Of a DNA stretch of 64,000 bases, positions 24,722 through 56,566 are shown one piece after another. Where the stretch lies: positions 24,929-88,928 of IMG/VR virus record IMGVR_UViG_3300005663_001084; one strand, written 5' to 3'. The stretch comes from a virus. The notes beneath the pieces were generated by a model. It did not search any database and was not told the origin of the DNA. It saw only the letters and a list, made by a program, of their open reading frames with translations. Numbering within the stretch: position 1 is the stretch's first letter; each line of letters starts with the position of its first letter. The position numbers were made by a program, and so were the translations under genes.

Positions 24722-24964
24722 TCATGCCGTCACGCCCATCTCCTTCAGCTTTTCAAAGACATCCTCGGGGATCTTCTCCCAGAAGACGATGTGCCGGAGC
24801 TTGTAGCCGCCCTGCTGAGGTTTATGGAGCCAGAGCAGCGGGTGCTTGCTAGTGATGAGGCTGCGGAAGGCGGGGCCTTGGACATGCCCGCCGTGGTCAG
24901 GCGTGCTCAGGTAGTACTGCGTCTCTTCGGTGTAGCAGACGTAGTATCGGGTCCGGCTGGGCAT
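24722..24964 (-). CDS. hypothetical protein
   Basis: ORF. Confidence 0.4.
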   Translation of the reverse strand: MPSRTRYYVCYTEETQYYLSTPDHGGHVQGPAFRSLITSKHPLLWLHKPQQGGYKLRHIVFWEKIPEDVFEKLKEMGVTA

Positions 24965-34856: not shown

Positions 34857-35786
34857 ATGAAAGAAGTCAGCCCCCCGGCGGCAGATGTCGGCGTCCTAGT
34901 CGGCAGGTTCCAAGTCCACAAACTCCACGAAGCACACCTGGAACTGATCAGGCACGTGGTCAAGCACCACGACCGCGTGATGATCTTCCTGGGCATGTCG
35001 CCGTGCCGCGTCACGAGGAACAACCCCCTCGACTTCGACGCCCGCAAAGCGATGATCCAGGACGCCTTCCCGGACGTAAGTGTCTACTACGTCAGGGACT
35101 GCCGACCCGATGACCTGTGGTCTAAGCGCCTCGACAACATGATCTATGAGCACATCAAGCCGGGCGCGAAGGTCCTGCTGTACGGTGGGCGCGACGCGTT
35201 CATCAAGCACTACGAAGGCAAGATCCCCACGCGCGAGTTGGAGCAGGAGGTCTTCATCTCGGGCACCGCCGTGCGCAACACCATCGCCAACACCGTGCCC
35301 AAGACGACCGACTTCCGCGCCGGGGTCATCTGGGCCTCCCAGAATCAGTACCCGCGTGCCATCCCCACCGTCGACGTGGCCGTCTGGGACGAGACCGGCG
35401 AGAAGCTCCTACTGGCCCGCAAGCCCGACGAGGATCTCTACCGCTTCATCGGCGGCTTTGCCACTGGCCCAACGTACGAGTCCGACGCGCGGCGCGAGGT
35501 CGACGAGGAAGCGCACATCGCCATCACCGATCCAGTCTACGTGGGCTCGCATCAGGTCGACGACTGGCGCTACCGCAGCGAGGCCGACAAGATCGTCACG
35601 CTCCTATTCGAGGCCAAGCGGCTCAGCGGCAACCCACGTCCCGACGATGACATCGCTGAACTCAAGTGGTTTGATTTCGCAACACTCCGCGACGAAATGG
35701 TCGTCCCGGAGCACCGTCCACTCCTCAAGATGCTTCAATGCAAGAGGGAGACACACCATGAAGACGAACATCGTACTGGCGACTGA
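34857..35786 (+). CDS. nadM: bifunctional NMN adenylyltransferase/Nudix hydrolase (NadM-Nudix type)
   Basis: N-terminal cytidylyltransferase-fold block VLVGRFQVHKLHEAHLELI. Nudix box GGFATGPTYESDARREVDEEAHI. The 3' end overlaps the nadV start. Confidence 0.8.
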   Translation: MKEVSPPAADVGVLVGRFQVHKLHEAHLELIRHVVKHHDRVMIFLGMSPCRVTRNNPLDFDARKAMIQDAFPDVSVYYVRDCRPDDLWSKRLDNMIYEHIKPGAKVLLYGGRDAFIKHYEGKIPTRELEQEVFISGTAVRNTIANTVPKTTDFRAGVIWASQNQYPRAIPTVDVAVWDETGEKLLLARKPDEDLYRFIGGFATGPTYESDARREVDEEAHIAITDPVYVGSHQVDDWRYRSEADKIVTLLFEAKRLSGNPRPDDDIAELKWFDFATLRDEMVVPEHRPLLKMLQCKRETHHEDEHRTGD

Positions 35787-37140
35787 CAGCTACAAGCTCA
35801 CCCACTGGAATCAGTACCCACGCGGCACGGAGAAGGTCTACTCCTACTTCGAGGCGAGGCCCGGCGCGAAGTACCGCGACACCGTGTTCTTCGGTCTCCA
35901 GTACATCATCGCCGAGTACCTCGCAGGCCACGTCGTCACGACCCAGAAGATCGACGAGGCCGAGGCGTTGGCAGCCCAGCACTTCGGCAATCCGAACATC
36001 TTCAACCGCGCCCGCTGGGACCACATCGTCGACCAGCACGACGGCCGCCTGCCTGTCCGCATCAAGGCGGTGCCCGAGGGCACGCCGGTCCCTGTCAACA
36101 ACGTGATGATGACCATCGAGAACACGGACCCGGCCTGCTACTGGCTGACCAACCACCTGGAGACGATCCTCACGCACGTGTGGTACCCGTCCACCGTGGC
36201 CACGCAGAGCCGGGAGGCCAAGCGGATCTGCAAGAGGTACCTCGAAGAGACTGCCGAGTCCGCTGGCGGCCTGGACTTCATGCTGCACGACTTCGGCTAC
36301 CGTGGCGTGTCGTCGGTGGAGTCGGCTGGCCTCGGCGGCGCTGGTCACCTCGTCAACTTCCACGGCACTGACACCATCGCGGCGATGGAACTGCTGCGTC
36401 AGTACTACGATGCCGACGTACCCGCGTTCAGCGTACCGGCCACCGAACACAGCGTGATGACCGCGCACGGTGCAGACGGTGAGAACTGGGTGCTGTCGCA
36501 ACTGCTCGATGCCTACCCTACCGGCATCCTGTCCATCGTGATCGACTCGTACGACTACCGGAAGTTCATCAAGATGGCAGGCACGACGTTCAAGGATCGC
36601 ATCCTTGCCCGCGACGGCAAGGTCGTCTTCCGTCCCGACAGCGGAGATCCGTGCGAGGTGACACTGGAGGTCCTGGAACTGCTGGGCGAGTACTTCGGGT
36701 CAGCCGACGGTAAGCCCGGCTACAAGATCCTGCACCCCCAGGTCGGCGTGATCTGGGGCGATGGCATCGATCTCGAAGACATGGAGCGCATCCTGGCCGA
36801 CATCACCTACGCGGGTTGGAGCGCCGAGAACATGGTGTTCGGCATGGGCGGCGGCCTGCTCCAGAAAGTCAACCGCGACATCCAGCGCTTCGCGTTCAAG
36901 AGCAGCTACCAGGAGCGCGGCGGCGAAGGCCACGACATCTTCAAGGAGCCCATCGACAAGACCAAGACCAGCAAGAAGGGCCGACTGAAGCTGGTGCGCC
37001 TCGAAGGCGCGCACGGCTCCACGCTGACCACCGTCGGCATCGATGATCCACGCGAGGACCTGCTGGAGACGGTCTTCGAGGGCGGTCAGGTCCTGAAACG
37101 TTACAGCCTGGACGAGATCCGCGCGAGAGCAGCACTGTAA
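35758..37140 (+). CDS. nadV: nicotinamide phosphoribosyltransferase (NAMPT/NadV)
   Basis: MKTNIVLATDSYKLTHWNQYP...FGYRGVSS...HGTDT. It is co-linear with the NAMPT family throughout. The track ORF 35146..37140 is over-extended into the nadM alternate frame. Confidence 0.85.
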   Translation: MKTNIVLATDSYKLTHWNQYPRGTEKVYSYFEARPGAKYRDTVFFGLQYIIAEYLAGHVVTTQKIDEAEALAAQHFGNPNIFNRARWDHIVDQHDGRLPVRIKAVPEGTPVPVNNVMMTIENTDPACYWLTNHLETILTHVWYPSTVATQSREAKRICKRYLEETAESAGGLDFMLHDFGYRGVSSVESAGLGGAGHLVNFHGTDTIAAMELLRQYYDADVPAFSVPATEHSVMTAHGADGENWVLSQLLDAYPTGILSIVIDSYDYRKFIKMAGTTFKDRILARDGKVVFRPDSGDPCEVTLEVLELLGEYFGSADGKPGYKILHPQVGVIWGDGIDLEDMERILADITYAGWSAENMVFGMGGGLLQKVNRDIQRFAFKSSYQERGGEGHDIFKEPIDKTKTSKKGRLKLVRLEGAHGSTLTTVGIDDPREDLLETVFEGGQVLKRYSLDEIRARAAL

Positions 37141-43403: not shown

Positions 43404-45230
43404 CTACTCAAAAACGTGAATTTCAGTCGGGCTGAACTCGGAGCGGAGCATTCCGATCAACTGGTTGGTGAGTTTGAAGCGTCCAGGGTTCATGGCGCTG
43501 AGCCTTCCGGTGTCACCCTCATAATGACCTTTCCAGTACTGGTCGGGGTTCGGCCAGAGCATACCATGCGACCACGTGGGCAAGCCTCGTCCCTTCTCTT
43601 CTTGTTGATCGACGTAAGCCTGCAACGCTTCGGGATCGCTTAGGTCAACACCCTCGTCCTCGATGTTAGGCATGTTAAGCTGATGGTAACGCTGGATTTC
43701 GCCGTGCATCAGAACCCAAATCTCATGGGTCAGCGGATCGGTGTACTCCATCCCGTCGTCATACGAGGTGTTCCCGTGTCCGAGGTCGAAGTAAAATACG
43801 GATGTACCTTCATCGTCGATCTTGTGGAGCGTGACATCGCTGGCGACGACAGATTCGGGGAGGCTCTCCTTGTCCATCACCACAAGAGCCGGAAGCGCCT
43901 CGACACCCAGGACGTGGAGAGCGTCGTACCGGTGGCTGCCCTCCAGGACGTACGGGCCTTCTTTGTCGACAACCACGATCAGCGGCACGATCCAACCACT
44001 TGCAGCGATCTGCTGCGCCAGTTCGCGGGCCGCCTCGTTGTCATCTCCAGAAGTCTCGAAAGCAGACAAGGGAACGGCGCGGATGCCGGACAGCACCTCG
44101 TAGTCCAGAAGACTGGCCGCGATGGAACTGGTATTTGGAACTTCGTCACCCACGCGGAGGCCGCTGACCTCGTCACCAGCCCGTGGGTAGAGTTCGTCCT
44201 CCTGGGCCTCGGCGAGTATTCGACGTATCACACGTCGGCTTTCGGTCAGCGCCTCGTCCTGCCCGGCGTAAAACCTGCGGATCGCACCCATGATGCGGCG
44301 CGAGTTTTCTCCGGGATCGAACATGTAGGACTTATTCCGTTCGGCCTTCCAGTAGTAGTCGTTACGCTCGTCGAATTCGCCCAGGCCGTCCTCCATATCG
44401 ACCGGCATGCCCTCGGCGCTGAAGTTATCGATCCAGCCCTCCAAGGTCCGGTACTGCGCCGAGGTGGGCTGGACCATCATGTCGAGGCCGCCGTCTTCAG
44501 GCATCAGACGGATCGCGCCCAGGCTCATAAACTCCTGCATGCCGCGCGTGCCGCCCCCGCCGTAACCGATGTTCCGATGGTCAAAGCCGCGCCCGTAGCC
44601 GCCGCCCCCGCCCGAGATCATGTCGCCGTCAGGCAGCAAGTAGAACGCATCGGTGAAGCTGCTCGTGATCCCGAACCGGCCCTTGGCTTTCTCGAACGGG
44701 TCGGCCTCGTCCTCCGCGTCCTCTACGCCGGGCCAGTCCTCCATGGACAGCGGCATCTCGTTGTCTAGCTTTCGGAGAACCTGGAGCGGGATCTCGCGGT
44801 ACCTGGACTCCTGGCCGTTCTGCACACTACGGAATACGGAGCGAGCGTACTCTCCGGCCGACCAGCCGAACTCGTCACTGATCACTCCAATGATCCGGGC
44901 GTGGAAGTCCAGCAGTATCTGGGGTTCGTTCTGGACGAGCGCAGCCATCTCTCCCGGATTCCAGTTGAGTGCGTCGTAGACCGCGCTCCAGATAGTCCGG
45001 TGCTCACCCTCGTCGAACGTAGCCAGCGTGTACTCGGGGAACAGTTCAGTGACAATCCTCTCGTAGCGCTGCCAGTCGTAGTCCCTGTCCTCCTCACGGT
45101 TTACCGCGTCCAGGAAGAACTCCCGCAGGTGATCGTACGTCATGTTCCAGACGTGCCGAGGCTGGGTGGGAGCCTCAACGCTGGCCTGCTCGGCCAACAC
45201 CTGCCGCATCACTAGGCGAGTGGCATCCAT
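43404..45230 (-). CDS. L-family protein 14 (about 608 aa) with internal leader copy, ParB-like domain and a C-terminal domain shared with protein 13
   Basis: N-terminus MDATRLVMRQVLAEQ. Internal copy ESRRVIRRILAEAQ. ParB-like motif YVLEGSHRYDALHVLG. C-terminal FYFDLGHGN...LPTWSH...EIHVFE. Confidence 0.7.
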   Translation of the reverse strand: MDATRLVMRQVLAEQASVEAPTQPRHVWNMTYDHLREFFLDAVNREEDRDYDWQRYERIVTELFPEYTLATFDEGEHRTIWSAVYDALNWNPGEMAALVQNEPQILLDFHARIIGVISDEFGWSAGEYARSVFRSVQNGQESRYREIPLQVLRKLDNEMPLSMEDWPGVEDAEDEADPFEKAKGRFGITSSFTDAFYLLPDGDMISGGGGGYGRGFDHRNIGYGGGGTRGMQEFMSLGAIRLMPEDGGLDMMVQPTSAQYRTLEGWIDNFSAEGMPVDMEDGLGEFDERNDYYWKAERNKSYMFDPGENSRRIMGAIRRFYAGQDEALTESRRVIRRILAEAQEDELYPRAGDEVSGLRVGDEVPNTSSIAASLLDYEVLSGIRAVPLSAFETSGDDNEAARELAQQIAASGWIVPLIVVVDKEGPYVLEGSHRYDALHVLGVEALPALVVMDKESLPESVVASDVTLHKIDDEGTSVFYFDLGHGNTSYDDGMEYTDPLTHEIWVLMHGEIQRYHQLNMPNIEDEGVDLSDPEALQAYVDQQEEKGRGLPTWSHGMLWPNPDQYWKGHYEGDTGRLSAMNPGRFKLTNQLIGMLRSEFSPTEIHVFE

Positions 45231-45688
45231 CAGCCCCAGGCTTCCTTGTCGTGCTGTACCAGCGCGCGGGTCATGTCCTGGGTGAGCGGCTCGACGTTGA
45301 TGGTGTCTTCCGACGGGACCGCAGCCATCCGCTTGAGCCACTGCCCTTCCGCCCCGGCCTGCGAAAGCGGGTCTGCCGTGTCGACCTCCCACTCCTCGCC
45401 GCTCGGGCTGAACGTGACAATGGAGATGTCGCCGCTCCCCATGGCCTGATTCAGATCCCAGTCCATCTTCGAGGCCCAGCGTATGGCGTCGAACTTGTTA
45501 TCGAACGCGAAGATTTCACCCTGGCCGTAGCGCTCGCCAGTCCCAGACATGGCCCAGTTGGAGGGCTGCATCGGGACGAGCCCACGCTTCTGGATATCTG
45601 AGACCCGGTCAGTGGGGGTGACGTGGTAGTACTCGACGCCCTGGGCCTCGGTGAGTATCCGTCTGAGGGCTCTGCGGGTGGGGTCCAT
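45230..45688 (-). CDS. L-family protein 15; possible ART-like fold
   Basis: Internal start MDPTRRALRRILTEAQ. Motifs YYHVTPTDR, GEIFAFD and EEWEVD. Confidence 0.6.
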   Translation of the reverse strand: MDPTRRALRRILTEAQGVEYYHVTPTDRVSDIQKRGLVPMQPSNWAMSGTGERYGQGEIFAFDNKFDAIRWASKMDWDLNQAMGSGDISIVTFSPSGEEWEVDTADPLSQAGAEGQWLKRMAAVPSEDTINVEPLTQDMTRALVQHDKEAWG

Positions 45689-45840: not shown

Positions 45841-46206
45841 ATGATCTTCAAGGACCTGATCAAACAAGACGAGTTTGCCGGGCACATGGTGTTATGCGTG
45901 CTCACTGCGCACGCCCAGGACGTGGCCAACGGCGACTTCCGCAAGGTCCCCGGCTGGGAGAACATAGACGGCAGGGAACTCGACATCATTCTGAGCATTG
46001 ACGGTGTTGAGGTTCCGTTCCAGCCCGCCATGGAGCGTATGGCCGAATGCCGCGAGGAGTGGATCAAGAAAGAGGCGTTCAATCTGTTCCAGGAGAAGCT
46101 GAGCGGCAAGTTCCCCGAAATCGGAGACCTGCTGGAACAGATCGAACAGAAGATCCGCGACGTTGCGCGCGAGACGTTGGGAATCGAACTGGAAGAGGAC
46201 TACTAA
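45841..46206 (+). CDS. hypothetical protein
   Basis: Internal ATG start MIFKDLIKQ. Confidence 0.45.
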   Translation: MIFKDLIKQDEFAGHMVLCVLTAHAQDVANGDFRKVPGWENIDGRELDIILSIDGVEVPFQPAMERMAECREEWIKKEAFNLFQEKLSGKFPEIGDLLEQIEQKIRDVARETLGIELEEDY

Positions 46207-46608
46207 GTGCGCAAGCCCAACCTGACCGTCGACGAGCTACTGGAGGACATCGAGTGCGAGGGTCTGCGCGAAGCTCAGGAGATCGTTTGCAAGTTCTGCG
46301 GTCATCCCTCCCACTCGGACACCTCGATCAGCAGACTGATCGAGGTTGCCCTGAGTCGTCTGGGAAATCACGACCACCCATCGGATGCTACACTCAAAGA
46401 CTCAGTTAAGTTCTACCAACTGAACTACTACATCACCCTCCTGGAGTACTGCCCGAACTGTGTCTGCGGCGGCGGGGACACCTGCTCGCCATGCCACTGG
46501 TTTCTGGTCACGGCCTCAGAGATCCTGCGCATGGCGGCGCTAGTCAAGACGATCCGACACATCCAGAAAGACGAGGACAAACCATGGCCTACGAATACGA
46601 AACCCTGA
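46207..46608 (+). CDS. Cys-rich protein
   Basis: GTG start. CKFCGH...CPNCVCGGGDTCSPCH. Confidence 0.45.
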   Translation: MRKPNLTVDELLEDIECEGLREAQEIVCKFCGHPSHSDTSISRLIEVALSRLGNHDHPSDATLKDSVKFYQLNYYITLLEYCPNCVCGGGDTCSPCHWFLVTASEILRMAALVKTIRHIQKDEDKPWPTNTKP

Positions 46609-46850
46609 AGCCCCAACTCCTCACCGACGACGGGCAGCGCATGTTCATCCAGGGCCGCGACGAGGTACTCAAGCTGATGCCGAACCGCAGCGACTCCGTT
46701 CTTATGGGTCGGGCTTTGGATTTCTTCAAGGCCGGGGACAGTTGGCTGAAGATGGCCTGTGTGGATCGTATGGTCGAGATCGGAGACCTCCACGAGATCT
46801 CTGGCGACAACGTCGTTGCCCAACACCGAGTATTCGTGAGAGCGCGGTAA
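46584..46850 (+). CDS. hypothetical protein
   Basis: Internal start MAYEYETLKP. Confidence 0.4.
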   Translation: MAYEYETLKPQLLTDDGQRMFIQGRDEVLKLMPNRSDSVLMGRALDFFKAGDSWLKMACVDRMVEIGDLHEISGDNVVAQHRVFVRAR

Positions 46851-46852
46851 TC

Positions 46853-47335
46853 ATGCCAGAAGATCACGACTGGAAAGCGATCAGCCAACTGATGGAGCAG
46901 GCGTCCGTCCTGGCCCAGCGGTACAATCTGTGCATCTGGAACGGCATCAAAGCTGACGGCAGCAGGCACATCGAAGCCTACCGCATGAAGCGTGGCGAGA
47001 AGGACGTTGTGCTGACTACCCCGAGCATGGAAAAAATGATCGAGAAGCTCACCGTGATGGCTGTAGAGGGGAAGCTGGAACATCACGACCGCGCCGTCGA
47101 AGACATCGACCCAGAGATCTGGCACCTGCACATCGACAGCGCTGCGTTCAATCTGCTGCACAAGACACAGGATCTGCACCAGACGTTCAGTCATCTGATC
47201 GGCCCGGTAGGGCTGGTGTACGACCGGTACTGCGTCATCGACATGCAGCTACGGAACCTGTGCCTATCTATCCAAAACCTAACCAGTTCGATACGCAAAG
47301 TCCCCATTCGAGAAAGAGAGAAGAAGCATGGATAA
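46853..47335 (+). CDS. hypothetical protein
   Basis: Internal start MPEDHDWKAIS. Confidence 0.45.
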   Translation: MPEDHDWKAISQLMEQASVLAQRYNLCIWNGIKADGSRHIEAYRMKRGEKDVVLTTPSMEKMIEKLTVMAVEGKLEHHDRAVEDIDPEIWHLHIDSAAFNLLHKTQDLHQTFSHLIGPVGLVYDRYCVIDMQLRNLCLSIQNLTSSIRKVPIREREKKHG

Positions 47336-48002
47336 TCCGATCATCGTGGCCCTCGATGGCATCGACATGTCGAAGGCTATCGCTCTCGCGCAGCTATTGA
47401 AGGATGACGTGTGGGGGTTCAAGGTCAACGACCTGTTCTTCCAGCACGGCATCCAGGCTGCCAACAACCTCGGGGTCTTTGGCAACGTCATGCTCGATGG
47501 GAAGTTCCACGACATCCCGAATACCGTGGAGAACACCACGAAGAAGATCGCAATCTTCGGCCACCCGGCTCCCGGCATCGTTACCATACACGCCTCCGGC
47601 GGCCCTGCGATGATACGGGCTGCTGTTGAGTACCTTCCGGGAAAGGTTGCGGCTGTCACCGTGCTCACGTCATTAGACGAGGACGCCTGCATGCACGTTT
47701 ACAACGTGCGGCCTGAGGTTGCCGTCAAGCGCCTCGCCAGTATGGCCCACGAATACGGAGCCAGCTTCATTGTGTGCAGCCCTCTGGAACTTGCCGCGCT
47801 CAAAGACATCCCTCGTCCCAAGATCGTCCCAGGCATCCGCCCGCTCTGGTACCAGGAGGCTGACGATCAGGCGCGGAAAATGACTCCTGCCGAGGCAATG
47901 GAAGCCGGGGCCGGGTTCCTGGTCATGGGCCGTCCGATCCTGCGCGCGGACGATCCGGTCGAAGCCGCGCAGCGCACACTCGAAGAGATCAAGAAGGGGT
48001 AA
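47328..48002 (+). CDS. pyrF: orotidine 5'-phosphate decarboxylase
   Basis: IVALDGIDM...FKVN; LDGKFHDIPNTV (catalytic DxKxxDIPNT); HASGG; VTVLTS; PGIRP; GRPI. All OMPDC signature blocks are present, in order. Confidence 0.85.
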   Translation: MDNPIIVALDGIDMSKAIALAQLLKDDVWGFKVNDLFFQHGIQAANNLGVFGNVMLDGKFHDIPNTVENTTKKIAIFGHPAPGIVTIHASGGPAMIRAAVEYLPGKVAAVTVLTSLDEDACMHVYNVRPEVAVKRLASMAHEYGASFIVCSPLELAALKDIPRPKIVPGIRPLWYQEADDQARKMTPAEAMEAGAGFLVMGRPILRADDPVEAAQRTLEEIKKG

Positions 48003-48004
48003 CT

Positions 48005-48823
48005 ATGTCACGCGACTGGAAGAACACAGGACTCTACCAGGAGTTCAACCAGGACGATGCGGACACCCGCGTCGAACGGTTCATTGAGGCCGCCGCCAAG
48101 CTGACCGTCGAGTTCCTGGAGGACCAGGATGCCTTCTGGCATTGGGACGGCCACAAGCACGTGGCGGAGTTGACCAGCGGCAAGCTGAGCAACTTCTTCG
48201 CCAACTGCACGCCGATCTTCACACACCCCGGCATCCAGAAGGACATCGCACACGCACTGTGCGAGAAGCTGGTGCGCAGCGTGTACGTCGGGATGGATAA
48301 GTTCCTGGGGAAGCCCGCAGGATACCACGGTCAGCCACGTATACTCACCGACGATAGGCTGTTCAAGACGCACCCTAACCGCTGGGTCGTCGGCTCCGCC
48401 ATGGGCAGCATCGGCCTCGCGCAGTCCATCGCCTCGGTCCTGGGCCAGGGCTGGAAGGCCGCATTCGCCGACAAAGGTGGCGACGGCATGGAACTCAAGC
48501 GGTTCGACCTGGGGGAAGCGCCCATGGTCCTGCTCTGCGAGGATGTGTTCACAACCGGTGGGACCATCAAGTCGACGATCATGGCCGTCGAGAAGAAGCA
48601 CGAGGACGTTCTCTTCGTGCCCGAGGTCCCGACCATCATCAACCGCAACCCGGGCTACTCCTTCCAGGTCAAGCAGGGTGGACCCGGCTTCCACTTCCCG
48701 GCGCTCATCACCAAGGTCGCTGAAACCTGGGACGATGTCACCAGCCTGCCCGAGCGCATGAAAGGCTGCGTCCCGATCCGGCCGAAAGTAGGATGGAAAA
48801 AACTAACAACCGCGATGTTATAG
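48005..48823 (+). CDS. type-I phosphoribosyltransferase, putative orotate PRTase, with a roughly 100-aa N-terminal extension
   Basis: PRPP-binding motif VLLCEDVFTTGGTIKS. Adjacent to pyrF. Confidence 0.6.
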   Translation: MSRDWKNTGLYQEFNQDDADTRVERFIEAAAKLTVEFLEDQDAFWHWDGHKHVAELTSGKLSNFFANCTPIFTHPGIQKDIAHALCEKLVRSVYVGMDKFLGKPAGYHGQPRILTDDRLFKTHPNRWVVGSAMGSIGLAQSIASVLGQGWKAAFADKGGDGMELKRFDLGEAPMVLLCEDVFTTGGTIKSTIMAVEKKHEDVLFVPEVPTIINRNPGYSFQVKQGGPGFHFPALITKVAETWDDVTSLPERMKGCVPIRPKVGWKKLTTAML

Positions 48824-48832
48824 GGGTTTGGA

Positions 48833-49351
48833 ATGGCAGAAAACACGTACCGTTGCTCCGTATGTGAACGAGACTTGCCGGAGTCAAGTTTCCATAAGCA
48901 ATCCAGAAAAGCAGGCAAAGCAGTTCGGCGTCGTCCTGTGGGCTACAAGTGCAGGACATGCCGGACGGAGTACAGAAAGCGGTGGTACCGGAATGGCGGA
49001 AATGCCAGTGTCAAAAGCACGAATCAGCGGCAAAGGTTGACTAATCCAAAGATCAGAATGCTGCATGCCGCGCGGAAGAGAGCGAAAAAGTTGGGACTGC
49101 CGTGCTCTCTGAGCAAGGAAGACTTCGAGATCCCGAAGATCTGCCCTGTTTTAGGTATCCATCTTGAGATTACTCTCGGAGGGATTACCACAAACACACC
49201 GACCATGGATCGGGTAGATAACTCAAAGGGGTATGTTCCTGGAAACGTCCAGGTCATCTCTTGGAGAGCAAACATGATTAAGCGGGACGCAACTATCCCT
49301 GAGTTGGAAGCGATTATTCGGTACATGCGGAAATTCTCCCCGGCTGCATAA
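48833..49351 (+). CDS. HNH homing endonuclease, lower-GC gene
   Basis: Motif MDRVDNSKGYVPGNVQVISWRANMIK. N-terminal CSVCER...CRTCRTEY. Confidence 0.7.
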   Translation: MAENTYRCSVCERDLPESSFHKQSRKAGKAVRRRPVGYKCRTCRTEYRKRWYRNGGNASVKSTNQRQRLTNPKIRMLHAARKRAKKLGLPCSLSKEDFEIPKICPVLGIHLEITLGGITTNTPTMDRVDNSKGYVPGNVQVISWRANMIKRDATIPELEAIIRYMRKFSPAA

Positions 49352-49387
49352 CTGGCGAGCGCTGGCCGACGAGAAGCTGGAGAAGTA

Positions 49388-49600
49388 GTGGGCAGCGAGA
49401 CGCTACCTTACGAGTGTTGGGCGATCATGTCTACGAACGAGAGCCCACGTGTCGTGCGGATCAACGGCCAGTTGGCAGTGTACGACAACCAGCCCGCCGC
49501 GTTGTTTAAGCTGGGTGACATCCTAGAGGCCAACCCAGGCAAGCAACACGCATACGCAGTCAGGCCTGCCACCGTCACCCTGGAGTTTCGAGATGAGTAA
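49388..49600 (+). CDS. hypothetical protein
   Basis: GTG start. Confidence 0.35.
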   Translation: MGSETLPYECWAIMSTNESPRVVRINGQLAVYDNQPAALFKLGDILEANPGKQHAYAVRPATVTLEFRDE

Positions 49601-49973
49601 AAAGTTCGAGCGCGCACGCGTCCGGGTCAAGGGGAACTACGACACGGGAGGCAGGCTGGGCTGGCAAATCGGACCCGAGATCTATGCTGAGCAGTGGTGG
49701 ATTCCTGTGCTCTGGGACGACGACGAAGATCCAGATTGCTTCAAGAAGGTTGGGCTCAACTTCCTGGATCACGGCCAGGAGCAGCGCGAACTCCGACAGA
49801 ACATCCTCGACATAGTCACCGACCTCGTGTCTAAGTTCATGTACTACAACCGAGAAGAAGAAGATGACACGCTCTCAGTCGAACGCCTGGAGCAGGCTTT
49901 CAAAGATGGCGTGATCACCCACGAAGAGGTGGCCGCCCACTTCCTGAAGGAACTGAAGGGCAAGAATGGATGA
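49593..49973 (+). CDS. hypothetical protein
   Basis: ORF. Confidence 0.45.
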   Translation: MSKKFERARVRVKGNYDTGGRLGWQIGPEIYAEQWWIPVLWDDDEDPDCFKKVGLNFLDHGQEQRELRQNILDIVTDLVSKFMYYNREEEDDTLSVERLEQAFKDGVITHEEVAAHFLKELKGKNG

Positions 49974-50361
49974 CATCCCACCACCACTACCACCACCATC
50001 ACCACTAACACGCGCTGATGTCGCCGCCGAAGTCGCTGAGTCCTTCAAGGACTACTACGACGAAGAGGATCGTGGCAAGCTGGAGGTGGCCAGCGTCGAG
50101 GGCATCGACCAGTACGTCCGCAGTCTGAACCTGTACTTCGTCATGGGCGAAATGGACGCAGACAGCGGCGGTCGTGGCTGGATTGCAGAGATCTGGGTCG
50201 ACGAAGCCAAGGCCGAGGAGCGTGCTACGTACATCGAAAAACGCGGTAAGCCTATCTACAAGTACCCGACCTTCTTCAGCGTCCAGGAAATCAACCTTGG
50301 CGAGGAGTTAGAGATCCACAACGAGGACAGAGACCCCCTGCCTCCGCAGCAGCTACCCTGA
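49966..50361 (+). CDS. hypothetical protein
   Basis: ORF with N-terminal Pro-rich repeat PPPLPPPSPL. Confidence 0.45.
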   Translation: MDDIPPPLPPPSPLTRADVAAEVAESFKDYYDEEDRGKLEVASVEGIDQYVRSLNLYFVMGEMDADSGGRGWIAEIWVDEAKAEERATYIEKRGKPIYKYPTFFSVQEINLGEELEIHNEDRDPLPPQQLP

Positions 50362-54959: not shown

Positions 54960-55383
54960 ACCCAGCGACGAGTTCTGGGCAGCCTTCCGTTGCGGCGGAA
55001 GCCTCGTCATCCTGTGCGAGCACTGCGGACGGACACACTTCTGTACCACTTCCGGGGCTGTCGACTACAACGAAGGTGAACTGGAAGAGCTACTGGAGAA
55101 GGCCAAGAAAGACCCCGACATGTACCGTGAAGACGGCACGTACAGCAGCATCGAGTGGGGATACATCGGCGGGAAGCAGTCTGTCATGCACTGCCCCTGC
55201 AACGAAGAGAAGATCGCTCCCTACGAACAGTTCATCATCGTCCACGCCGAACAGATCCTGGAGTATCTCCAGAGCCGAGCTAATAAAAAACTCAGGAGTT
55301 CTCAGAGCCTCATGGACAAGGTCAACGAGACACTTAACGCCACAGAGGAAGCAGACAATGCGAGTAACCGTAGCCCCGAATGA
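54949..55383 (+). CDS. zinc-binding protein
   Basis: CEHCGRTHFC...HCPC. Confidence 0.45.
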   Translation: MMRKPSDEFWAAFRCGGSLVILCEHCGRTHFCTTSGAVDYNEGELEELLEKAKKDPDMYREDGTYSSIEWGYIGGKQSVMHCPCNEEKIAPYEQFIIVHAEQILEYLQSRANKKLRSSQSLMDKVNETLNATEEADNASNRSPE

Positions 55384-56566
55384 ACCGCCCGAGTCCTGGA
55401 CCTCATCGGTTTTCCTCGCCGGTCCCACGCCACGCAAAGAGGGCGACACCCGCTGGCGTGACAAAGCTATCGCGGAGTTCAAGAAGAGAGGCTTCGACGG
55501 TGTGATCCTCGACCCCGAGCGTGAGGACTGGCCCGAAGACAAAGAGGGCTACGAAGAGCAGATCCACTGGGAGCAGGAGATGCGCGAGCGGTGCGACGTA
55601 ATCCTGTTCTTCGTCCCGCGCCACATGGAACTGGCCCCCGGACTGACGACCAACATCGAGTTCGGCCAGGACCTATCAGGCTGGAAGGTCGTCTACGGCA
55701 GGCCCAACGACGCGGTCAAGATGGACTACATGGATCTCATCTACAAGCAGCGCTACAAGGTGGTCCACGAGACGTCCATCGAGGCCACGGTCCAGGCCGC
55801 CATGGACATGATCGAGACGCTCACGGAGAAGATCCACGACGTCGAGGCGGAGACGAGTGCGCTGCGTGAGGACGGCGAGACCTATGTGCCTCTTCACATC
55901 TGGTCGTCTCCCCAGTTCCAGTCCTGGTACAAGGCTCAGCTTGCCGTGGGCAACCGTCTTGACGCCGCCCGCGTGGAGTACGCGTTCGTGATGCCCAAGG
56001 CAGGGCTGCTGTTCATGTTCGTACTGTGGGTCAAGGTCTGGATCGAGGCAGAGCAGCGGCACAAGGAGAACGAGTTCATCGTCAGCCGCACCGACATCTC
56101 CACCATCGTGGCGTACAAGAAGGCGCTGTCCGGATCGCTGGCCGACACTGAACTGGTCCTGGTCCAGGAGTTCCGCAGCCCGGTCCGTAACAGCAGCGGC
56201 TTCGTCTACGAGTTGCCCGGTGGGTCAAGCATCAAGCCTGGGCAGGACCCGCTACAGATCGCGGCCGAAGAACTCCACGAGGAAACCGGCATCAAGATCG
56301 ACGACCCGAAGCGGTTCGTTCAGGTCATGCCGAAGCAGCTTGTCGCCACCATGCTCACGCACCAAGCCCACGTCTTCGCCATCGAACTGACCGAGGAGGA
56401 GATGGCTGTCGCGCGGGCCAAGGACGCGGCCGACGAGACCCACGGTCTGGAAGAGGACTCGGAGAAGACCTACGTCCGGGTCACGACGTTCGGTGAGCTT
56501 CCCGACCGCGATGTCGACTGGTCGACCATCGGGATGATCACCACGGCCCTACGCCAGGAACTCTGA
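55358..56566 (+). CDS. fusion of nucleoside 2-deoxyribosyltransferase-like (DNPH1/NDT fold) and Nudix hydrolase
   Basis: N-terminal SVFLAGPTP...CDVILFFVP...TNIEFG. C-terminal Nudix-like box GGSSIKPGQDPLQIAAEELHEETG. The start was moved from the over-extended track ORF 55076. Confidence 0.5.
   Translation: MRVTVAPNEPPESWTSSVFLAGPTPRKEGDTRWRDKAIAEFKKRGFDGVILDPEREDWPEDKEGYEEQIHWEQEMRERCDVILFFVPRHMELAPGLTTNIEFGQDLSGWKVVYGRPNDAVKMDYMDLIYKQRYKVVHETSIEATVQAAMDMIETLTEKIHDVEAETSALREDGETYVPLHIWSSPQFQSWYKAQLAVGNRLDAARVEYAFVMPKAGLLFMFVLWVKVWIEAEQRHKENEFIVSRTDISTIVAYKKALSGSLADTELVLVQEFRSPVRNSSGFVYELPGGSSIKPGQDPLQIAAEELHEETGIKIDDPKRFVQVMPKQLVATMLTHQAHVFAIELTEEEMAVARAKDAADETHGLEEDSEKTYVRVTTFGELPDRDVDWSTIGMITTALRQEL

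Follow-up and report, generated by a model that had tools for sequence, protein, structure and literature searches.

Why would a virus carry two adjacent genes for the last steps of pyrimidine nucleotide synthesis, and does the second of them really act on orotate? The question arises from a 64,000-nucleotide stretch of viral DNA (IMG/VR virus record IMGVR_UViG_3300005663_001084, positions 24,929 to 88,928), which we will call the window. An earlier note, made from the sequence alone, described a pyrF gene in this window followed by a phosphoribosyltransferase (PRTase). We think it likely that the two genes are an auxiliary-metabolism pair which converts orotate and phosphoribosyl pyrophosphate (PRPP) to orotidine 5'-phosphate (OMP) and then to uridine 5'-monophosphate (UMP), and which thereby feeds the replication of a very large genome. 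The main features are:

47328..48002, + strand: pyrF, orotidine-5'-phosphate decarboxylase, 224 amino acids (from PF00215, TIGR01740 and PDB matches)
48005..48823, + strand: predicted divergent orotate phosphoribosyltransferase (OPRT; PyrE-like, of the Thermus/TIGR01367 type), 272 amino acids
47994..47999, + strand: Shine-Dalgarno sequence AAGGGG of the PRTase, within the last codons of pyrF (from reading the sequence)

The first gene had been called a clear pyrF, and we agree. The protein passes the cut-offs of PF00215 (2.3e-35, 122.9 bits, cut-off 27) and of TIGR01740 (114 bits, cut-off 92.3), well outside what chance would give, and it misses the cut-off of the stricter model NF001273 (169.4 versus 193). 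Its top matches in PDB are all OMP decarboxylases (OMPDC), such as 3tfx (9e-28) and 1eix from Escherichia coli (5.6e-26). The alignment to 1eix places the catalytic motif as follows:

47496..47513, + strand: catalytic D57-G-K59-F-H-D62 (DxKxxD) motif of PyrF, aligned to LDlKfHDIPnT of E. coli OMPDC 1eix

PyrF also keeps D10 (VALD), K32 (FKVN), TVLTS, PGIRP, DDQxR..TP, and the phosphate gripper VMGRPI. With every catalytic motif present, the product of 47328..48002 is, judging from these alignments, a canonical OMP decarboxylase, and it is predicted to decarboxylate OMP to UMP.

For the PRTase, a database search gave 40 homologues, and we aligned 38 of them (alignment A1). By itself, the window protein matches TIGR01367 (pyrE_Therm) at 3.5e-14 with 52.8 bits, while models of adenine phosphoribosyltransferase (APRT) match at 1e-3 or worse. 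TIGR01367 is also the best NCBIfam match of each family member that we tested (53–98 bits, all below the cut-off). The profile built from A1 hits the OPRT of Helicobacter pylori (4paw) at 2.1e-15, followed by the OPRT or UMP-synthase chains 2yzk, 2wns, and 3qw4, and the best APRT reaches only 1e-5. So the comparison of OPRT with other PRTase families, which the earlier note had proposed, favors OPRT. The AlphaFold2 model of the PRTase has a predicted local distance difference test score (pLDDT) of 87.2 and a predicted template modelling score of 0.85, and its top 15 Foldseek matches are all OPRTs or UMP synthases. We also considered that the protein might be an APRT, a hypoxanthine-guanine phosphoribosyltransferase, or a PRPP synthetase, but these were consistently weaker than OPRT in hidden Markov model, profile, and fold searches. 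We also rejected the Ter-operon family PF15609 (PRTase_2): precomputed tables list it for some homologues, though only as a faint match, and the window protein does not match it at E ≤ 1.

To place individual residues, we used the PyrE of E. coli (identical to PDB 1oro_A) as the reference, both with hhalign of A1 and with a joint alignment (A3) of the family with the Patescibacteria, Methylacidiphilum, and E. coli enzymes. We take the roles of the mapped residues, including R156 as the orotate-binding arginine, to be those described in the structural literature on the E. coli and Salmonella enzymes. The mapped features are:

48167..48205, + strand: OPRT hood motif ELTSGKLSNFFAN, residues 55–67, aligned by hhalign to residues 24–36 of E. 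coli PyrE (TLKSGRKSPYFFN)
48527..48565, + strand: PRPP-binding motif VLLCEDVFTTGGT, residues 175–187, aligned to E. coli VMLVDDVITAGTA
48644..48646, + strand: codon for R214, the equivalent in the alignments of the orotate-binding R156 of E. coli OPRT
48767..48796, + strand: C-terminal motif CVPIRPKVGW, residues 255–264, with R259, P260, and W264 invariant

In the hood, S58 and G59 are invariant and correspond to S27 and G28 of E. coli, and F64-F65-A66-N67 corresponds to Y33-F34-F35-N36; the same residues 55–67 also align to 4paw. In the PRPP motif, E179 and D180 correspond to D124 and D125 of E. coli and T183 to T128, and E179, D180, and V181 do not vary across the family alignment. R214 is invariant in all 38 aligned homologues and across A3. 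The IRP element near the C-terminus is shared with the Thermus-type PyrE of Methylacidiphilum, which ends in ...TQAIRP. The conserved motifs of the family as a whole are AELTSGKLSxFFANCTPIF, GSAMGAIGLAQ, TE...M.LKRFDLG, CEDVxTTGGT, the invariant R214, and C.PIRPK..W. By its fold, its motifs, and its nearest relatives, the 272-amino-acid protein is a divergent OPRT and not an orphan PRTase.

The gene's neighbors in related genomes also bear on its function. At least 23 of the 40 PRTase homologues have pyrF on the same contig (20 because the longest contig has the identical size to that of a top pyrF homologue, and 3 verified directly), and we retrieved the genomic contexts of seven homologues. 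In L001, pyrF is followed by the adjacent PRTase gene. The order is reversed in L004, L006, and L007, with an overlap of 8 nucleotides in L004 and L006. The two genes overlap by 4 nucleotides in L008/L009, and in L010, pyrF precedes the PRTase by about 1.2 kb on one contig. In L002/L003, pyrF is not within 6 kb of the PRTase. Thus pyrF and this PRTase are recurrently co-inherited on phage-like contigs.

Three IMG/VR contigs of 112–192 kb (L011, L012, and L014) instead encode a single protein of 448 amino acids, with an OMPDC domain at the N-terminus and an OPRT domain at the C-terminus (L014:3053-4399; TIGR01740, 132.6 bits; TIGR01367, 77.8 bits). The protein is a viral UMP synthase with the domain order OMPDC-OPRT. 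Its OPRT domain is a more distant member of the TIGR01367 type: it is 34% identical to the window PRTase over 70 residues and lies outside the close family in our tree.

The 34-kb phage-like contig L008 (Logan SRR17165173) has more of the pathway. Region L008:231-10690 includes a gene similar to quinone-type dihydroorotate dehydrogenase (pyrD; 217 bits), the beginning of a gene resembling dihydroorotase (pyrC), and thyX. Judging from these matches, L008 holds most of the late pyrimidine pathway. Given the pyrD-like, pyrC-like, and pyrF genes, the PRTase alone is therefore left as a candidate to link PyrD with PyrF. (The thyX gene of L008 has a LAGLIDADG insertion, and an adenylyltransferase similar to domain II of RfaE is also present.)

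Together, the conservation of residues and the pathway context (pyrF adjacent or fused, and pyrD- and pyrC-like genes in a relative) strongly indicate that orotate is the substrate of the PRTase. The earlier note was too cautious in describing the substrate as unknown. The predicted reaction is orotate + PRPP → OMP + pyrophosphate.

We found no third gene that travels with the pair. When we compared the open reading frames (ORFs) at 40–56 kb of the window with 14 related loci by all-against-all BLASTP, only pyrF and the PRTase were shared; the other matches came from opposite-strand shadow ORFs. Because nothing else is shared between this region and the related loci, the pair is, by its gene content, a mobile two-gene cassette.

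Within the window, the two genes are tightly coupled. The stop codon of pyrF (TAA, 48000–48002) is followed by CT and then by the start codon (ATG) of the PRTase at 48005. The type-I PRTase that had been reported immediately after pyrF is indeed there, with VLLCEDVFTTGGT in the ORF at 48005..48823 and a gap of just 2 nucleotides. The genes are in different frames and are not fused. A purine-rich stretch precedes the ATG of pyrF. The cassette belongs to a + strand block of small, closely spaced genes, which begins near 45.8 kb, and we found no terminator-like site on the + strand within 45–52 kb. Because of the 2-nucleotide gap, the Shine-Dalgarno sequence inside pyrF, and the lack of a + strand terminator, the pair is almost certainly co-transcribed, as the earlier note had supposed, and it is probably translationally coupled as well. 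A scan for promoters and terminators gave nothing above the expectation from shuffled sequence. Its single promoter-like site on the + strand overlaps the start codon of pyrF, and we do not consider it credible.

Where does this OPRT come from? Homologues are scarce: among 1.84 billion cluster representatives, we found 14 at E ≤ 1e-30 and 63 at E ≤ 1e-10. All of the close homologues that we examined are on phage-like contigs. The best matches in GTDB (one genome per species) are proteins from metagenome-assembled genomes of Patescibacteria/Saccharibacteria, which are 30–32% identical to the window PRTase and adjoin pyrF. In these pairs (L016-L028, for instance L017:3953-5357 and L023:3971-5391), pyrF is 36–40% identical to that of the window, the neighbors are cellular genes (DapB, PgeF-like, TspO), and the PRTase scores 98 bits against TIGR01367, which is still below the cut-off. 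The next matches are Thermus-type PyrE proteins of Verrucomicrobiota and Clostridia. In a rough neighbor-joining tree, without support values, the sequences from phage contigs form one cluster, with the Patescibacteria clade as its sister group. Relative to E. coli PyrE, the two groups nest with the Thermus-type OPRTs. By identity and placement in the tree, the pyrE-pyrF pairs of Patescibacteria are the nearest cellular relatives and an intermediate clade.

The earlier note described the pair as unusual in a phage, and this holds for sequenced isolates. Among 50,697 phage records, we found no match for the PRTase (by tblastn) and none for positions 46000–50000 (by blastn), and neither pyrF nor the PRTase matches a PHROG family. 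pyrF matches only 12 of the records. The two that we inspected are host chromosome beside prophages or mis-assigned contigs: L099 (MK416013.1:1-6641) has lapA-lapB-pyrF-yciH and L100 (CAKLQH020000011.1:60607-71278) has cmk-rpsA-himD-pyrF.

We propose that the 272-amino-acid OPRT, a virus-lineage offshoot of the Thermus/Helicobacter type, would convert orotate and PRPP to OMP and pyrophosphate, and that the 224-amino-acid PyrF would go on to produce UMP by decarboxylating OMP. If expressed during infection, the pair would draw the host's orotate and PRPP into the pyrimidine pool for a very large genome that is being replicated and transcribed, and it would work independently of the regulation of the host's pyrE and pyrF. 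This is the UMP-synthase-like route that had been suggested from the sequence, and the canonical PyrF, the OPRT-type PRTase, and the recurrent linkage of the two all agree with it. We infer that the replicon is viral and that the pair boosts nucleotide supply.

Several observations count against our proposal. First, the PRTase is below all of the curated cut-offs (52.8 versus 150.25 for TIGR01367, 21.9 versus 106.8 for TIGR00336, and 15.7 versus 26.3 for PF00156), and hhalign of A1 against E. coli PyrE gives a probability of only 75%, with E = 2.5e-5. Second, two lysines are not conserved (K26 of E. coli is replaced by T57, and K73 by G134), and the loop of E. coli with R99, K100, and K103 is not conserved either and cannot be aligned residue by residue. 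Third, four residues that are invariant in this family only (W45, W47, H50, and H52) adjoin the hood and could reshape the base pocket. Fourth, scanning the window's ORFs with Pfam and PHROG revealed no other gene of the pyrimidine pathway, nor any capsid, portal, terminase, or other structural hallmark gene among its 82 ORFs.

The earlier note had also emphasized the N-terminal part of the PRTase, whose first 100 or so residues were said to have no obvious homology. We find instead that residues ~35–95 are the OPRT hood, and the alignment of 38 homologues is conserved from residue ~35 onward. In shorter members of the family, the alignment to TIGR01367 begins at profile position 15–19. Only residues 1–~30 and 96–122 are confined to P0001-P0005, the five closest sequences (64–100% identical):

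48005..48106, + strand: clade-specific N-terminal extension, residues 1–34, present only in P0001-P0005
48290..48370, + strand: clade-specific insertion, residues 96–122 (27 residues), predicted to be a low-confidence loop; 33 of the 38 aligned sequences have a gap here

As for the structure of the extension, the AlphaFold2 model is informative only in part: confidence is low for residues 1–18, and residue 19 begins a helix. The block-mean pLDDT is 46–60 for residues 1–20 and 58–60 for residues 101–120. Among P0001-P0005, the first 34 residues are 76–94% identical, as compared to 60–70% for residues 123–272. Being more conserved than this catalytic core, the extension is under constraint. The extension and the 96–122 loop are lineage-specific decorations, and contacts with another subunit or a partner are one possibility. 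A more specific idea is that the N-terminal ~34 residues and the insertion are a docking or regulatory element, which might either hold OPRT and PyrF together as a non-covalent UMP synthase or change regulation or the choice of base. In that case, the cassette could serve for escape from the host's control or depletion of pyrimidine nucleotides, and not merely for flux. We consider this unlikely.

Another idea, also from the earlier note, is that the cassette is a counter-defense module that rebuilds the pyrimidine pool after immune depletion of nucleotides, by analogy with the reconstitution of NAD+ by phages. This would concern the biological role of the cassette and does not conflict with the OPRT and OMPDC biochemistry. 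The window does encode a phage-type nicotinamide phosphoribosyltransferase (NAMPT; 35146..37140) and a Nudix-containing protein (55076..56566), and the cassette moves among unrelated genomic contexts, as accessory genes do. The sole hint near the cassette itself is in L001, whose PRTase is 66% identical to the window's: two genes downstream of the cassette, L001:1637-1918 encodes a 93-amino-acid Acb2/Tad1 hairpin protein (a family of anti-CBASS/anti-Thoeris sponges). We found no counterpart of it at 40–56 kb of the window. However, the NAMPT gene is 11 kb away from the cassette, in a different gene block, and the cassette's neighbors pyrD, pyrC, and thyX in L008 speak for ordinary biosynthesis. 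Known depleting defenses target dCTP, dGTP, ATP, or NAD+, and we know of no defense system that depletes UMP, OMP, or orotate. Counter-defense lacks direct support, and we consider it unlikely.

Could the PRTase act on another base, perhaps an orotate with a substituent or a different carboxylated heterocycle? The PRTase and the decarboxylase would then jointly yield a non-canonical nucleotide, for instance for modification of the genome. The scores below all OPRT cut-offs, the missing equivalents of K26 and K73, the invariant W45, W47, H50, and H52 beside the hood, and the clade-specific extension and insertion would all fit this idea. But the replacements of K26 and K73 are the same in kind in cellular Thermus-type OPRTs (4paw and the PyrE of Methylacidiphilum fumariolicum SolV), and the SolV enzyme also has the loop pattern of our family. 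Furthermore, the equivalents of R156, T128, and D124/D125 are invariant, PyrF is wholly canonical, and the chromosomes of Patescibacteria have the intermediate clade in ordinary pyrE-pyrF pairs. L008 also supplies the upstream enzymes that make orotate, and the BLASTP comparison with related loci revealed no DNA-modification genes linked to the cassette. Action on another base therefore seems quite improbable, and we prefer a nucleotide-supply cassette that uses orotate.

Our proposal also depends on the window being viral. Its 82 ORFs match 12 Pfam families (among them NAMPT, OMPdecase, HNH_3, NUMOD4, GNAT, HD_4, and NDT-like), its PHROG matches are mostly HNH endonucleases and NAMPT, and about 85% of the ORFs match nothing. 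There are no tRNAs, ribosomal genes, or other cellular housekeeping genes in the window, and its genes are short, overlapping ORFs that keep to one strand over long blocks. The related contigs that we examined are likewise dense single-strand arrays of small unmatched ORFs, and L010 is an IMG/VR viral contig. Also, the PRTase is identical to LCGC14_0164330, which, along with LCGC14_0164320, lies on a 224,854-bp contig (GenBank LCGC14 series) from the Loki's Castle marine-sediment metagenome. That the window is part of a large phage genome is a well-supported inference from this gene content. The opposite reading, that the region is a cellular or plasmid pyrF-pyrE operon, could draw on the missing capsid, portal, and terminase genes, on the 224,854-bp contig not being among the IMG/VR contigs, and on the commonness of pyrF-pyrE adjacency in bacteria, but we consider it very improbable given the unmatched ORFs, the lack of housekeeping genes, the same-strand blocks, the several HNH homing-endonuclease genes, the phage-type NAMPT, a T4_Y13H protein, and the equally phage-like contexts of all of the close homologues examined.

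The closest known enzymes are the OPRTs of the Thermus/Helicobacter type (TIGR01367; 4paw, which is HP1257 of H. pylori). They share with the window PRTase the SGxxSxF/Y-F/Y hood, the GxAxGG segment that replaces K73 of E. coli, the TE...M.L(K/R)RF loop, the (C/V)EDVxTTG PRPP motif, the (D/N)R arginine, and the C-terminal IRP. However, the window PRTase is only ~20–30% identical to them and scores 52.8 bits against a cut-off of 150.25, and its family is the separate cluster beside the Patescibacteria clade (in the rough tree). It is also longer, with 272 amino acids instead of ~190. The additional length is due to the N-terminal extension of ~30 amino acids, a W-x-W-D-G-H-K-H hairpin before the hood, the 27-residue insertion, and a longer C-terminal helix.

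Phage-carried OPRTs as such are not new. The pyrE of cyanophages is an established auxiliary metabolic gene and has been interpreted as a means to boost the synthesis of pyrimidine nucleotides during infection (PMC9983427; PMC4022391). In those reports, pyrE is given without pyrF, while the window has a different OPRT subfamily that is coupled to pyrF. The UMP synthases of eukaryotes and giant viruses (fused OPRT-OMPDC) catalyze the same two consecutive reactions, but the window has two separate ORFs. (The best viral fold matches in BFVD include the UMP synthases of Marseillevirus LCMAC103 and Fadolivirus as well as the PyrE of an uncultured caudovirus.) The phage systems NARP1 and NARP2 are also phage-encoded, PRPP-dependent routes to a nucleotide cofactor, and NAMPT is found elsewhere in the window, but their chemistry and product differ from those of the cassette, and the window's NAMPT lies in another gene block. 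We found no published description of a phage pyrF-pyrE cassette, nor one that joins orotidine, decarboxylase, and jumbo phage; the broader literature that turned up on pyrE and pyrF dealt with bacterial genetics alone.

We view the pair as a fairly ordinary find: a rare and previously unannotated example of nucleotide-biosynthesis genes in a phage, and not a system of a new kind. With it, the nucleotide-biosynthesis genes of large phages come to include pyrF, here coupled to a hitherto unrecognized virus-lineage branch of Thermus-type OPRTs. Because the curated OPRT models miss this entire branch, its genes are labeled as hypothetical or as generic PRTases in metagenomes. The practical value is in better annotation and in a testable pair of small enzymes, and not in a new biological principle.

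The genes on either side of the cassette are:

46853..47335, + strand: upstream ORF of unassigned function, 160 amino acids in the public gene call (L096 gene call and ORF list); context, outside the cassette
48833..49351, + strand: HNH/endonuclease VII-like gene, directly downstream (phrog_3322, 7.8e-32; phrog_1035, 1.4e-27); context

The upstream ORF overlaps the start of pyrF by 8 nucleotides and belongs to the same + strand block. It has no match in Pfam or PHROG and is not kept beside the cassette in related loci. The HNH gene begins 9 nucleotides past the stop codon of the PRTase. Its codon usage is atypical and it is missing from that place in L001, so it is probably a mobile homing-endonuclease insertion. 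The window carries several further HNH genes.

A few other genes of the window deserve mention. At 49388-49600 (+), a 70-amino-acid ORF has PF25744 (T4_Y13H), a family of small T4-like phage proteins, in public gene calls. On the minus strand, at 43404-45392, an ORF of up to 662 amino acids has a weak match to the N-terminal domain of ParB (~450–505); it lies at the strand switch upstream of the + block that includes the cassette. The NAMPT gene at 35146-37140 (+) matches phrog_448 at 3.5e-160, and its NAMPT domains start only at about residue 208 of the longest ORF, so either translation begins further downstream or the protein has an N-terminal extension of ~200 amino acids. Finally, the 496-amino-acid protein encoded at 55076-56566 (+) has a domain similar to nucleoside 2-deoxyribosyltransferase (110–187, 1.8e-12) and a NUDIX domain (357–435). 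This is an unusual pairing of domains to find in a genome that also has NAMPT, and it may be linked to NAD or nucleotide metabolism.

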